From: a virus
Taxonomy: Duplodnaviria > Heunggongvirae > Uroviricota > Caudoviricetes
Direction: 5' to 3' (one strand)
Length of the DNA: 46,608 bases
Virus record (IMG/VR): IMGVR_UViG_2522572021_000005
Position numbers: made by a program. Shown here piece after piece: positions 9,001 through 15,000 of this stretch (positions are counted from its first letter, which is position 1; each line of letters opens with the position of its first letter).

Positions 9001-12000
9001 TAGTAACGGCCTGAGCGTTCCGCCAGTCCGGCGACAACTGGCGGCCCCCAAACGCCCGTCGGGGCCAACGCCAATTGAGTTGCTGAAACAGGAATATGAA
9101 CGCCGGAAAGCGGCTGGTTTTGTTTGAGTTGAGAAGTGATTTTTTACCGGGAGGAAATTTATGGAGACTGTTTTTGACGCACTGAAAGCGATGGGAAAAG
9201 CCACGTCGGTAGAGCTGGCTGCGCGACTTGATATCAGTCGTGAAGAAGTACTGAACGAGCTGTGGGAACTGAAAAAGGCTGGCTTCGTTGATAAAAGCGT
9301 ATACACCTGGCGTGTGGCTGATAACAACGTTCAGCAGGAACAGCCAGCGCCAGAAGAAACCACCACGGCAACAGAAGCGAAAATCTCAGAGTGCGATTTA
9401 ACCGCGACGATTGAACAACGCGGACCACAAACGGCGGATGAACTGGCTACGCTGTTCGGTACAACATCCCGCAAAGTTGCTTCAACGCTGGCAATGGCAA
9501 TCAGCAAAGGTCGTCTGATTCGCGTAAACCAGAACGGTAAAATTCGTTACTGCATACCAGGTGATAATTTACCAGCAGAGCCGAAAGTTGAATCGGTAGC
9601 GGAAACCGATGGTAAAGCCTTTCCTCAGCCAGCCGGTGTTGCGTTACCGGTACAGAAAGATGCAACACAGGAAGATATTAAAACAGAAACTGTGGCGGAC
9701 ATTGTGCAGTCGCTGCCATCGTTTACTGCAACGCGAGAAGATGATTTGATTTTGCCATCGCTGCATATGGCAAATCGCGAACTGCGTAGGGCGAAGAATC
9801 ATGTCCAGAAGTGGGAGCGAGTCTGCGCCGCGCTGCGGGAGCTGAACAAGCACCGGGATATGGTTGCCGGGATTTGTCGGAAGTCCGGGCAATGAGCGGA
9901 TGGTGCAGGCCTGAAATCATGATACTAACAATGAAGGTAAAATGCATCGGCAGTCTGATTGGTCGTAGTGAGGCGGCGGTCAGGATGAAAGCCCAGGTTA
10001 AGGGAATAAGCCTGATTCTGCGGGGTGATTTTCACCAGTCAACAAAATATCCGTAGCGCGATAACGGTCAAAAATTATGGCGCTGACACTTTTGTGCCAC
10101 TGGAGATGACTGTACCTAAGTTCAGGGGAGAAGAACACGTCCGGTGGGATGGTCGGGCCAGATTTAAAGGGCAGGTCATGGCTCCAGCCTGTACGCTGGC
10201 AATGGAGGCTGCCTGGCGGGAAATTGATATGGGAACCACGCCACTCAGGGATTTACTGCCGGTCCAGAGAATAAATTCCTGTTACGGTTACACCACTGTG
10301 ATCTTGCAAGTGCAGGAAAGTAGGTCTACACGGTAACGCGAGTGCGTGTAACTTTGATGTCATTCCCGTAGAAACACCGGACAAATTTTCGCTGACAGGT
10401 CATGCAGAAGGTATAAATCTGCAGATTATGGACAATTACGGATATCCGGCAAGAGCCGGAAAAAGCATGCCGCCTCTAATTCTCAGTGGAAGATGGACTT
10501 GATTATACTCATTGCATTGTCAGAAATAGTTATCCATTAAAGGCTGGCTATTCCAAACAGGATGTTGATTACAAAAATGTAATCAACATGTAAGGTTTAT
10601 ACTCTTCAATATGCGTATAATTTTCCTTATTTTGTTGACTTTAAATAACAAGCTATGCACGAGGTAAAGTCGGATAAGTTTATCTGGATGTAATATATAT
10701 TATTTGTAGTGTTTATAACTTTATTTCATGATAACCAATAAAAGGAGTTTTTTATGAGGAACATAATGGCAGGTTTTTTAATATTCCTGTCTTCTGCTGC
10801 TTATGCTGATATCAATCTGTATGGTCCTGGTGGCCCGCATACAGCCTTGCTTGATGCAGCCAAACTTTATGCCGAAAAAACAGGTATTATAGTGAACGTT
10901 CATTACGGCCCACAGAACAAATGGAATGAAGATGCCCAAAAAAATGCAGATATCTTGTTTGGCGCATCAGAACAATCTGCTCTGGCTATCATTCGGGACC
11001 ATAAAGACAGCTTCAGTGAAAAAGATATTCAGCCTCTTTATCTGCGAAAAAGTATTTTACTGGTAAAGAAAGGTAATCCTAAAAATATCCGGAGTATTGA
11101 CGACCTGACCAGACCTGGGATTGGCGTAATTGTTAATGATGGTGGTGGTACCAGTAATACATCAGGCACTGGCGTCTGGGAAGATATTGCCGGACGTAAA
11201 GGGAATATAGAAACTGTCGCCGCAATCCGAAAAAATATTATTTTATATGCGCCCAATAGCGGAACTGCACGTAAGGCTCTTGAGAATCAGCCTGGAGCAG
11301 ATGTCTGGATAACCTGGGCTGACTGGGCAGCCAGTAATCCAGAAATTGGTGATGTCGTGGAAATAGCGCCAGACTACGTGATATGGCGTGATATGAACAT
11401 TACAGTACGTCAGGATGCAAATGATGAAACCCGTCGATTTGCAGAATGGCTACAAACCGATGAAGCGGCGCCTGCATTCAAAAAATATGGCTGGACCAGG
11501 AAAGGCACTTGACATCCTCGTCCTTCAGGACGTGGATTCTTTTTCCGGATGCCGCGCCAGCGGCATGTAGGGGCAGCTCACAAAACGGAAAAAATTGTAC
11601 GCTAAGCCTCGCCAGGTGAACTGAATTCATTCCGATATGGGAATTCCCATATCGGGCGAAAACGGTTTGCTGTAACGGCAGAGTTAAGTAGGATTGCTGC
11701 GGGTGCTTGAGGCTATCTGCCTCGGGCATGAACACCAACGGCAGATAGATAAAAGCCCCACCCGACTATAAATCGAAGTGAGGCCCTATATGCTCGTCAC
11801 ATATAGATTGCCTCTTACGGACCGAAAGGTCAAGGAGAAGCAGGCTATGAAGCAGCAAAAGGCGATGTTAATCGCCCTGATCGTCATCTGTTTAACCGTC
11901 ATAGTGACGGCACTGGTAACGAGGAAAGACCTCTGCGAGGTACGAATCCGAACCGGCCAGACGGAGGTCGCTGTCTTCACAGCTTACGAACCTGAGGAGT

Positions 12001-15000
12001 AAGAGACCAGGCGGGGGAGAAATCCCTCGCCACCTCTGATGTGTCAGGCATCCTCAACGCACCCGCACTTAACCCGCTTCGGCGGGTTTTTGTTTTTATT
12101 TTCAACGCGTTTGAAGTTCCGGACGGCGCCGGAATAGAATCAAAAATACTTAAGTAGCGCGCAGGGAGAAGAGGGATGGACCCCGAACAGGGGAGTGCTA
12201 TTTATCTGGAAGGATTCTGTTGATGAGAATCGAAGAATTACGTGAAATTTTTAGTGAAGATGGCCTCTATACTGTGCGCGTTGAGAATGGCGCTATTGTC
12301 AGCCACTGCCGTATTAAATGTTTACAGTCTCAACAAGGGAAGAGTGGAGCTGCGTTAATTTACTTTGTGGATGGACTTGTGACGGATGGTTTTATTTTGC
12401 GTGAAAATGAATTTGTCACATCATTGCAGTCTCTGAAAGAAGCTGGGCTTAAGGCTGGTTTTTCTGCTTTTGAAGATGAGTGAATTCATCTACAATTCAG
12501 CGCAGGACTGAACCCCTGTTGAGTAACACTGTGCCACCGGAGAAAGCCGATGGCGCAAAATTCCAGATCACACAATTCTGATAATTCAGCCGTCTTTGCC
12601 AGCAGGCACGGGCGGCGCTCTCACGCATTTAAATCTGATTGGTTCCGGCACGCCCCATGCACTGAAGAACAGGCCGAATGGCTGATTCAGAACTACCGCA
12701 GACGTGGGTATGAGTTTAGGAAAGCCCTCAGCCTCGATTATCGTCACTGGATAATCTACGTCAGGCTGCCGTACTCCGAGCGCCCACCGCGTCCGTCCCG
12801 CACATTCCAGCAACGCATCTGGAGGTAACGTGCGGGTATTACTTCGACCTGTTCCGGTACCGGAACTTGGGTTGGTGGTCCTTAAACCAGGCCGTGAATC
12901 CATGCAGGTATTCCATAACCCTCGAGTGCTTGTGGAGCCGGAACCGAAAAGCATGCGCGGTCTGCCGTCCGGCATCGTCCCTGCCGTTCGCCAGCCGCTG
13001 GCGGAGGATAAATCATTACTGCCGTTTTTCAGCAATGAGCGTGTGATTCGTGCTGTTGGTGGCGCTGGTGCACTGTCTGACTGGCTGTTGCGTCATGTCA
13101 AATCCTGCCAGTGGCCTCATGGTGACTATCATCACAGTGAAACCGTTATTCACCGTTATGGTACCGGCGCAATGGTGTTGTGCTGGCACTGCGACAACCA
13201 GCTGCGTGACCAGACATCCGAATCACTCGAGCAACTTGCTCATCAAAACCTGTCAGCATGGATGATTGACGTCATCGGTCACGCAATAAGCGGTACGCAG
13301 GAGCGTGAATTATCTCTGGCTGAATTATCCTGGTGGGCGGTCCGCAATCAGGTGGCGGACGCGCTACCGGAAGCGGTATTACGTCGTTCGCTGGGGTTGC
13401 GTGCGGAAAAAATCCGCTCAATGTACCGTGAAAGCGACATCGTACCGGGAGAGCAGACCGCCACCATCATACTGAAGCAGCGCACAAAAAATCTTGCGCC
13501 GCTGCCTCACGCCCACCAGCAAAACCCGCCACAGGAAAAGACGGTGGTCAGCATTGCCGTTGATCCGGAGTCACCGGCTCAGTATCTCCAGCGCCAGAAA
13601 CCACAACGGGAAGAGATGCCTGTATACACGCGCTGGGTAAAAACGCAGAAATGCATGACGTGCGGTAATCAGGCAGATGATCCGCATCACATCATTGGTC
13701 ATGGACTGGGAGGGATGGGAACAAAGGCTGATGATTTGTTTGTTATTCCGCTGTGCCGTAAATGTCATAACGAACTGCACGCTGGGGTAAAAGATTTTGA
13801 AGAAAAACACGGCAGCCAGCTGTTGTTGCTGATTCGTTTTTTAATGCACGCGAGAAATTCGGGTGTCCTGAAGTGGAAAGCATGAATGACTGAACGGATA
13901 GAATTTGTTTTGCCTTACCCGCCGACGGTGAATACCTACTGGCGACGTCATGGCAATACGTATTTCATCTCGGAAGCCGGAAAGCGTTATCGCCGTGATG
14001 TGGCGCTAATTGTTCGCCAGCAGCGGCTGAAATTAAACCTGTCCGGAAGGCTGGTGATAAAGATTATTGCAGAGCCACCGGATAAGCGCCGTCGTGACCT
14101 GGACAATATCCTGAAAGCACCACTGGATGTGCTGACGCATGCCGGACTTCTCATAGACGACGAGCAGTTTGATGAAATCAATATTGTGCGCGGTCAGCTC
14201 GTTCCTGGTGGGCGGCTGGGGATAAAAATCACAGAACTGGAGTGCGCATGAATAACCACTATTTACAGTTTGTGCGTGAGCAGCTCATTATCGCCACCGC
14301 TGATTTGAGTGGGGCAACAAAAGGTCAGCTTGAAGCCTGGCAGGAGAATGCCATGTTCGATACAGGGCGTTACAGGCGAAAAAAAATCCGGTACCGCGAT
14401 GAAGTGACTGGAAAAATGATAACGCGGGATAATCCACCAATCCCGGGAAAGCAATCGCTGGCGAAGGTGACGTCAATTCCTCTGGTCAGTCCGGTTGAGT
14501 TTTCGACATCATCGTGGCGGCGGGCTGTTCTGTCTCTTGAAGAACATCATAAAGCCTGGTTGTTGTGGTGTTACAGCGGGAGTATTTGTTGGGAATATCA
14601 GATCGCGATAACACAGTGGGCGTGGAATGAATTTAATACTCAATCCGGTACCAGAAAAATTGCTGGGAAAACGCAGGAACGCCTGAAAAAATTAATCTGG
14701 CTGGCGGCGCAGGCAGTAAAAGCAGAACTTTTTGGTGGGGAAGGTTATGAATATCAGGAGCTGGCATTACTGGCGGGAGTGACAACTAAAAACTGGTCCA
14801 AAACATTTACTCGTCACTGGGTTGCAATGAAACACATTTTTCACCGACTGGATAGTGAGGCTTTATTATTTGTAATGAGAACACGTTCAAAACAAAAGGC
14901 GGCATTTTCAAAGCAAAGTGTTGCAAAAGTAGATTGAAAGGCATATATTTCATGCAAATCTGATATTTTGCCGATTTTGTACGTGATGGCAAAAGCAAAC

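Follow-up and report, generated by a model that had tools for sequence, protein, structure and literature searches.

A palindrome beside a prophage hokD/sok module is probably a remnant of a KilA-N gene, a gene family that carries a covarying palindrome at a fixed codon position

In the 46,608-nucleotide stretch of Caudoviricetes DNA analyzed here (IMG/VR record IMGVR_UViG_2522572021_000005, hereafter the window), a hok-type toxin gene is preceded by a perfect 24-bp palindrome, and the question that this locus raises is whether the palindrome belongs to the toxin–antitoxin (TA) system beside which it stands. An earlier note on this DNA had placed it in the leader of the hok transcript, as either a protein-binding site or an element of the mRNA fold. 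The palindrome is not a hok feature; rather, upstream of the hok promoter, it is probably the best-preserved stretch of a KilA-N pseudogene fragment, without a required function at the hok locus. KilA-N genes of many bacterial phyla and phages, in turn, carry a covarying 24-bp palindrome at a fixed codon position.

The palindrome itself is as the earlier note described it, being perfect over 24 bp and separated by 192 bp from the hok ATG, close to the "about 200 bp" given there. The sequence CCGATATGGGAATTCCCATATCGG is the sole match to itself in the window even when up to three mismatches are allowed, and GGGAATTCCC likewise occurs once. None of 200 shuffled windows contained a perfect palindrome of 24 bp, and the next-longest palindromes in the window measure 18 bp, a length that 16.5% of the shuffles reach. 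Two such 18-bp perfect palindromes are present, at 1607–1624 and 15538–15555 (GGCAGGGGATCCCCTGCC and CAGTTAACATGTTAACTG, respectively), neither of which is individually significant. As single-stranded DNA, the 24-bp palindrome is predicted to form a 10-bp stem with an AATT loop (–10.2 kcal mol–1, z = –4.2).

Whether the palindrome could act within the hok transcript depends on where that transcript begins. The Rfam model RF01794, which, though called "sok" in Rfam, was constructed in the hok leader's orientation (the hok mRNA strand), matches 11701–11849 over its full length (model positions 1–157) with 101.1 bits against a gathering score of 59 (E = 4e-23). The first base of the match is that of the GGGUGCUUGAGG that begins hok-type mRNAs, and its final three bases are the hok AUG. 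The predicted leader start at about 11701 lies 46 nt downstream of the palindrome, which, counted from the mRNA start, spans –69 to –46, its 3′ edge falling 10 bp before the –35 hexamer. Because the palindrome lies outside both the leader and the mRNA, it cannot take part in the mRNA fold. The proposal that it sits in the leader and governs translation through that fold, for which its proximity to the hok ATG speaks, is thus extremely improbable, as three lines, namely the leader model, fold-back pairing and the boundary of homology, agree on a 5′ end at about 11701, and most hokD loci have no such palindrome. On this point the earlier note does not stand, although its remark that the palindrome is foreign to the described hok/sok leaders does. 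A search with Rfam at a permissive threshold, covering 10500–13500 and an intact KilA-N/hok locus, returned no family over the palindrome, and gave weak sub-threshold matches only (isrK, rsmX on the hok 3′ untranslated region).

The distribution of the palindrome among hok loci points the same way. We gathered 80 hokD loci from viral contigs via the Hok protein alone, all of which encode the identical 51-aa toxin and which together contain 55 distinct upstream sequences. With up to four mismatches allowed, the palindrome is found in 12 of these, and the remaining 68 carry unrelated sequence up to the –35 or –10 region, such that homology among hokD loci begins at the promoter and not farther upstream. 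Lying outside the mRNA and occurring in so few of the loci, the palindrome is not a constituent of the hok locus, nor is it a known part of all hok leaders, an outcome for which the earlier note had allowed. Since 68 loci with the same toxin do without it, hok regulation has no need of the palindrome. Among 5,426 complete E. coli genomes, a hokD-like match is present in 4,723, a 57-bp segment with the palindrome in 877, and the paa–palindrome–hok arrangement of the window in 578; a large class of E. coli genomes aligns only from window position 11833 onward, with the leader missing. The palindrome is also independent of the adhesin gene paa that precedes it here, as loci without paa carry it right after a small hydrophobic open reading frame (ORF; ...LMDRLGN-stop), and in further loci it has different sequence on either side. 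This ORF of 34 aa (MSDDISLVMEGALAVIAVVGVYCLVVFLMDRLGN, annotated as hypothetical) precedes the palindrome in paa-less prophages (locus L002, 2412–2516; locus L126, 2403–2507), and variants of it precede hok in many other prophages. Its tail is kept at about 11609–11625 of the window, its stop codon lying within the KilA-N relic described below.

The sequence around the palindrome indicates where it came from. In a blastn search with the 57-bp segment, weaker matches fall within "KilA-N domain-containing protein" genes of E. coli prophages (36/41, E = 2e-4 in 28 Gb), and the similarity to KilA-N (PF04383) coding sequence reaches beyond the palindrome. Local alignment against 186 KilA-N gene fragments bounds the similarity at 11622–11662, with 37/41 matching the live allele L258. 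On the minus strand, the segment reads TTT TCG CCC GAT ATG GGA ATT CCC ATA TCG GAA TGA, or F S P D M G I P I S E stop. With 41 nt left and a stop after ..ISE, it is a relic and not a gene, and the window holds no intact KilA-N gene, the best tblastn match of the full protein having E = 0.08. A live KilA-N gene of E. coli AR_0006, divergent from hok, encodes 257 aa (Pfam KilA-N, 94.5 bits) and contains a 22-bp perfect palindrome, CGATATGGGAATTCCCATATCG, encoding (R)DMGIPIS within LSRDMGIPISELIQ; a hok leader lies 355 bp upstream on the opposite strand in 16 of 73 KilA-N loci. The hok-side sequence would thus be palindromic because it was already palindromic inside the live KilA-N gene. We note as a separate observation that the C-terminal half of the E. 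coli KilA-N protein (L125, residues 125–251) shares about 32% identity with ST313-td, a protein of Salmonella prophage BTP1.

Relics in several states of preservation are found. A second one, which lies upstream of another hokD gene (L133), has a greater length and has decayed further (37/44), covering the codons for SELIQSFK, and its palindrome CCGATGCGGGACTTCCCACATCGG is of another allele type (D-A-G-I-P-A-S) with two uncompensated substitutions. Three further relics (L002, L193 and L205) have a 1-nt deletion. The persistence of decayed relics is as expected without strong constraint at the hok locus.

The palindrome has a much wider distribution in live KilA-N genes. When viral contigs were scanned with an 18-mer core, 74 of the 121 matches were upstream of hok, and others lay within KilA-N genes of unrelated phages, and even of giant-virus metagenome-assembled genomes (MAGs), always in the frame D-M-G-I-P-I. 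As such a scan is biased towards the core, three samples independent of the palindrome were built. The first comprises viral-contig relatives of the E. coli KilA-N protein together with the matches of a degenerate scan (M-G-I-P ... G-T-W). Here, the two arms change in pairs, as in GTT...AAC (V-M-G-I-P-I-T) and GAGGTCT...AGACCTC (S-M-G-I-P-I-D, 28 bp), and further arm types include CCGATGCGGGAATTCCCGCATCGG (D-A-G-I-P-A-S) and TCGAAACGGGAATTCCCGTTTCGA (E-T-G-I-P-V-S), with the center variant GGG ATC representing purely synonymous covariation. Across 20 sequences of this sample, changes occur on both sides in seven of ten stem pairs and 93% of the cells pair; in a test that ignores phylogeny, none of 500 column shuffles equaled any of the covariation measures, and a shifted register abolishes the signal. 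The second sample consists of twelve distant homologues from named phages (26–53% identical). A perfect hairpin of 8–11 bp is found at the same codon position in each of Planktothrix PaV-LD, Microcystis Mic1 and Klebsiella phage 2, and no other hairpin of at least 8 bp is present in the first 390 nt of any of the twelve.

The third sample was drawn from one-genome-per-species bacterial contigs, scanned for KilA-N using a six-sequence alignment, and is based on the peptides [QR]GTWVHPD and DGY[IV]NAT[AS][ML], neither of which overlaps the palindrome. Its 80 loci come from Alpha-, Beta- and Gammaproteobacteria, Verrucomicrobiota, Bacillota, Spirochaetia, Planctomycetota and other groups. They were ordered by how closely their proteins resemble that of a DMGIPIS allele, an ordering that may enrich related peptides and cannot create symmetry at synonymous sites. 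A perfect stem of at least 8 bp is present at the target position in 48 of the 75 usable genes (at least 6 bp in 61), compared to 3, 1 and 2 genes with a stem of at least 8 bp in three control windows of the same genes. Resampling of synonymous codons with the peptide held fixed gave a mean of 3.6 genes and a maximum of 9 over 200 runs, which rules out the peptide alone as the explanation. The peptide tracks the DNA: there are more than 15 arm sequences, with codon n being the reverse complement of codon –n around G-I-P, giving the mirror-like peptides DMGIPIS, DIGIPIS, DTGIPVS, DAGIPAS, DVGIPTS, ETGIPVS and EAGIPAS, as well as DMGIPMS, VMGIPIT, SMGIPID, SAGIPAD, ATGIPVA and VVGIPTT. The number of arm types, the same-gene control windows and the codon resampling are all independent of phylogeny. 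We found no description of a KilA-N palindrome in Rfam or in the literature searchable here, where KilA-N with palindrome or inverted repeat, or GGGAATTCCC with phage, gave incidental co-occurrences only.

For reference, the loci with a live-gene palindrome around G-I-P are L051/L208, L277, L278, L279, L291, L369, L379 (PaV-LD), L384 (Mic1), L387 and L390–L469. Some individual copies have additional features. Two adjacent GGGAATTCCC-type palindromes are present in each of L074 (a GC-rich phage contig, at about 13850–13910) and L106 (a KilA-N gene, at about 3240–3300), the copy in L017 (about 6850–6920) is flanked by the direct repeat GCAACCAATGCGCGCA, and in L122 (about 3600–3660) the palindrome is lengthened to 38 bp and followed by a T-run, in a terminator-like arrangement.

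What kind of constraint would maintain such an element can be judged from the pattern of pairing in the live genes. The symmetry extends over exactly 12 positions per arm, with 78–100% Watson–Crick pairs, and falls to background beyond. The four bases at the center are symmetric in their own right (50 of 69 genes have AATT, and GATC and TATA are alternatives that covary), and the codons GGA, ATT and CCC are used at the motif in 80%, 86% and 71% of the genes, compared to 22%, 26% and 18% elsewhere in the same genes. Mismatches in the stem show no excess of G-T (7, compared to 11 A-C and 37 others). A hairpin in the sense-strand RNA is weakened as an explanation by these data, since G-U pairs should then be tolerated and the symmetry of the loop should be irrelevant. 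The pattern fits symmetry of the duplex DNA, whether as a cruciform or hairpin on either strand or as a symmetric binding site, and it fits arm-to-arm copying by template switching too.

Quasipalindrome template switching is an established mutational mechanism in E. coli, and it is conceivable that the palindrome is a recombination or deletion hot spot, where hairpin or cruciform breakage or template switching occurs and which perpetuates itself via quasipalindrome "correction". Arm copying would yield just what is seen, namely strictly Watson–Crick pairs without wobble bias and a symmetric center; in several independent contexts, moreover, both ends of the relics fall no farther than 10 nt from the palindrome, and the relic palindromes measure 24–26 bp compared to 22 bp in the nearest live alleles. 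However, the L133 relic keeps two uncorrected mismatches, the 1-nt deletion variant persists in several loci, and mutational bias alone leaves unexplained why one fixed codon position of one family is affected across phyla. As the explanation of the hok-side palindrome we therefore consider this rather unlikely, while noting that a hot-spot role is compatible with the relic reading, does not exclude it, and is likely to have contributed to the shape of the relic.

The decay of the relics, in turn, weakly favors selection in the live gene over mutation bias alone. We tentatively propose, with slightly less than even confidence, that the KilA-N palindrome is a functional cis-element under DNA-level selection, of which the hok-side copies are detached instances. 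It could serve as a cruciform or hairpin signal, or as a symmetric binding site for the KilA-N protein or a partner. If this is true, a DNA signal would override protein sequence across bacterial phyla, phages and giant-virus MAGs, which is unusual and apparently undescribed.

Returning to the window, the relic reading, which we consider likely, could be accounted for as follows. An ancestral KilA-N gene adjoining hok would have been destroyed by deletion or illegitimate recombination on either side of its internal palindrome, and later mosaic exchanges in the nin region may have put first the small membrane-peptide ORF and then the paa cassette to the left of the palindrome. We infer the order of these rearrangements, as we do the promoter and Sok ends and the lack of a required function of the relic at hok. 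Several observations weigh against this reading. The palindrome is perfect in most relic copies, and at 24–26 bp is longer than the 22 bp of the closest live alleles, and 4 of 19 flank positions in the relic deviate from live alleles while the palindrome stays perfect; a perfect, lengthened palindrome beside diverged flanks could mean that its upkeep is still ongoing. Both relic breakpoints lie no more than 10 nt from the palindrome in at least three independent flank contexts, and breakpoints hugging the palindrome in this way are unexpected for random deletions. Finally, a center at –57.5 from the hok start could be a place for activator or repressor action.

The same observations bear on the protein-binding site that the earlier note had raised, here taken as a retained site at which a dimeric phage protein (for example, a KilA-N protein from a co-resident prophage) would modulate the hok promoter. 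This would account for the fragment outliving the rest of the KilA-N gene, and it agrees with a perfect, spacer-less palindrome centered at –57.5, 10 bp from the –35 hexamer, that is perfect in most relic copies across at least three flank contexts and occurs in several copies in genomes of Shiga toxin-producing E. coli (STEC; median 2, up to 6 places per genome). KilA-N is, furthermore, a DNA-binding domain (PMC8096241). However, 68 of the 80 hokD loci with the identical toxin have no palindrome, decayed copies persist, and this prophage has no KilA-N gene, with no KilA-N protein able to bind the palindrome found to be encoded in the window. In addition, the arm middles in live genes stay symmetric despite complete sequence change, unlike a fixed protein recognition sequence. 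Taken together, we judge a retained binding site to be improbable.

A stable 10-bp stem between paa and hok might also, as an RNA hairpin, terminate or insulate transcription that reads through from paa or the early operon towards hok. There is, however, no U-tract on either strand (GCGAAAAC on one, AATGAATTC on the other), the palindrome was not reported by the terminator scan, paa has a terminator-like hairpin of its own at 11519, and the palindrome also occurs without paa. An intrinsic terminator is rejected for want of a U-run and of a call in the scan, and we regard termination or insulation in general as highly improbable. The relic of a KilA-N gene thus stays our preferred account of the hok-side palindrome, and its position relative to the other features of the locus is given in Table 1.

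Table 1. Features of the hokD/sok locus and its upstream flank, in window coordinates
Feature	Position	Strand	Details and basis
paa (AcfC-family adhesin Paa; moron upstream of hok, outside the hok module)	10754..11512	+	252-aa ORF; RefSeq annotation of a 100% identical record; Pfam SBP_bac_11, 118 bits
Terminator-like hairpin and T-run 3′ of paa	11519..11542	+	Stem 11519–11532, tail TGGATTCTTT
Relic of a KilA-N domain gene, 41 nt, about codons 54–67	11622..11662	–	blastn, translation, local alignment
Perfect palindrome CCGATATGGGAATTCCCATATCGG, 24 bp, core of the KilA-N relic	11632..11655	.	12 + 12, no spacer; center –57.5 from the hok mRNA start
hok promoter (putative)	11666..11694	+	–35 TTTGCT 11666–11671, 17-bp spacer, –10 TAGGAT 11689–11694; spacing from the Rfam 5′ end; start of hokD-locus similarity
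hok mRNA, full-length (predicted ends)	11701..12096	+	Rfam start, terminator, fold
hok leader (tac stem-loop, middle hairpin, Sok-target hairpin), ending at the hok AUG	11701..11849	+	RF01794
sok (predicted)	11750..11833	–	–35 TTGACC 11833–11828, weak –10 CAATCT 11810–11805, RNA from about 11798 to 11750; promoter and 5′ end by position only
mok-like upstream ORF	11790..12002	+	ATG 11790, alternative GTG 11778; in the hok frame; 70–74 aa
hok (hokD-type) toxin coding sequence, 51 aa	11847–12002	+	Pfam HOK_GEF; RefSeq identity
Fold-back (fbi-like) element	12052..12064	+	Pairs with the mRNA 5′ end 11701–11712; also found as an inverted repeat
Intrinsic terminator of the hok mRNA	12071..12097	+	Hairpin 12071–12088 and T-run

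Downstream of the relic, the region is a standard, previously annotated hokD/sok type I TA module with nothing new in it. The earlier note had recognized a hok-type locus with a canonical 51-aa toxin ORF and a terminal fold-back/terminator hairpin, all of which our analysis recovers: the ORF scores 82.9 bits against Pfam HOK_GEF (PF01848, cut-off 22) and is identical to RefSeq WP_000813254.1 "HokD", and it is accompanied by the RF01794 leader, the fold-back element and the terminator. The transcript 11701–12096 has a predicted folding energy of –166.3 kcal mol–1 (z = –6.4), and the pairing of 11701–11712 with 12052–12064 is present in silico in both the minimum-energy and centroid folds, in line with the RNA folding that the earlier note had suggested as a check. 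All transcript ends are placed by homology and folding. As a strict consensus promoter scan called neither a hok nor a sok promoter, both are placed by homology and position alone.

The mok-like ORF is in frame with hok here, as in the other hokD loci aligned, and its product would therefore be an N-terminally extended Hok (81.6 bits against HOK_GEF for the 70-aa form) and not a separate overlapping protein. The earlier note expected sok on the minus strand around this upstream frame, and a Sok-like antisense element is indeed predicted there. The minus strand of 11812–11735 folds with –30.2 kcal mol–1 (z = –4.3), a GC-rich terminator-like hairpin coming after the antisense of the target hairpin, and the predicted 3′ end of the Sok RNA consists of a hairpin at 11786–11755 followed by UUUUAU. 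The middle leader hairpin is here without 21 nt (window 11759–11779, compared to L002–L004) that most hokD loci have, and because these 21 nt are missing from the antisense of the Sok terminator stem, the predicted Sok RNA is about 49 nt long rather than about 70 nt. Two compensating single-base indels, in the regions of 11810 and 11830, give the predicted sok promoter a different spacing and –10. By analogy with known modules, the stable hok mRNA (about 11701–12096) would be kept translationally inert through pairing of its 5′ end with the 3′ fold-back element, and the antisense Sok RNA (minus strand, about 11798–11750) would pair with the leader around the mok-like ORF, blocking Hok synthesis.

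The locus is the nin region of an ompW-integrated lambdoid prophage of STEC O145:H28. The 721 bp of the window that were tested are 100% identical to the chromosome of E. coli O145:H28 RM12581, and "PPompW" prophages of STEC show 99.9% identity over the same tested 721 bp. The gene order runs from replication genes through a fimbrial pseudogene, paa, hokD, a rem-like ORF, a DUF968/HNH gene, RusA and Q to tRNAs. Within it, paa and the frameshifted fimbrial pseudogene (10061–11512) form a cassette inserted upstream of hok, the right junction of which, at about 11605–11609, cuts the small ORF. The sole sigma-70-like consensus site in the region lies at 12111–12140 (TTGAAG, 18-bp spacer, TAGAAT), between the hok terminator, which it directly follows, and the rem-like ORF at 12220–12483. 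The DUF968 protein (12830–13885) additionally matches the putative HNH nuclease profile HNHc_6 with 31.9 bits.

For the hok locus, these results change little, beyond allowing the palindrome to be removed from the candidate regulators of hok. For KilA-N, a DNA-binding domain that ranks among the most widespread in phages, prophages and large DNA viruses and whose biology is poorly understood, a covarying palindrome at a fixed position offers a concrete and directly testable handle. It also provides a natural case for separating DNA-symmetry selection from template-switch bias, with the non-coding hok-side copies as a built-in neutral control.

Among known systems, the module resembles the archetypal hok/sok of plasmid R1 (RF01794), with which it shares the leader structure, the 5′–3′ fold-back, an upstream mok-like ORF, and a predicted antisense hairpin followed by a U-tract. 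In the R1 paradigm, it is the fold-back that keeps the full-length hok mRNA inert. The mok-like ORF is in frame with hok here, unlike in plasmid R1, where mok overlaps hok out of frame, and we know of no palindrome described upstream of R1 hok. The nin-region neighborhood (the rem-like ORF, a DUF968/ydfU-like gene, RusA and Q) is common to this locus, to hokD (relF) of Qin, a prophage of E. coli, and to hokW-sokW of the Sakai prophage Sp5. Compared to truncated hokD copies, it has a full leader, the fold-back element and a predicted Sok-like antisense unit; the K-12 hokD locus is presumably of the truncated kind, with its leader missing. The hokW-sokW system of the Stx prophage Sp5 has been shown experimentally to be a type I TA system, in which the toxin has 51 aa and the antisense RNA is complementary to the 5′ untranslated region, with both Hok toxicity and its neutralization by Sok demonstrated in that related prophage (PMC8621323), and hok genes are overrepresented in prophages (bioRxiv 10.1101/2025.08.07.668861).

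The hok-side relic, for its part, matches the codons ..S-x-D-M-G-I-P-I-S-E-L-I.. of KilA-N genes (PF04383) and has the same internal palindrome; unlike those genes, it is 41 nt with a stop, from which no domain can be encoded. Among regulatory sites situated within the gene of their own regulator, the nin-region protein Roi of HK022 reportedly has its binding site inside its own gene. The KilA-N palindrome is likewise symmetric and lies within the gene of a DNA-binding protein, but its sequence varies between homologues, with the symmetry kept. In-frame inverted repeats that shape the encoded peptide, and arm-to-arm copying, are familiar from Rickettsia palindromic elements and E. coli quasipalindrome hot spots. 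Compared to elements of the Rickettsia type, the KilA-N palindrome is short (24 bp) and is found at one fixed position of one domain family rather than dispersed.

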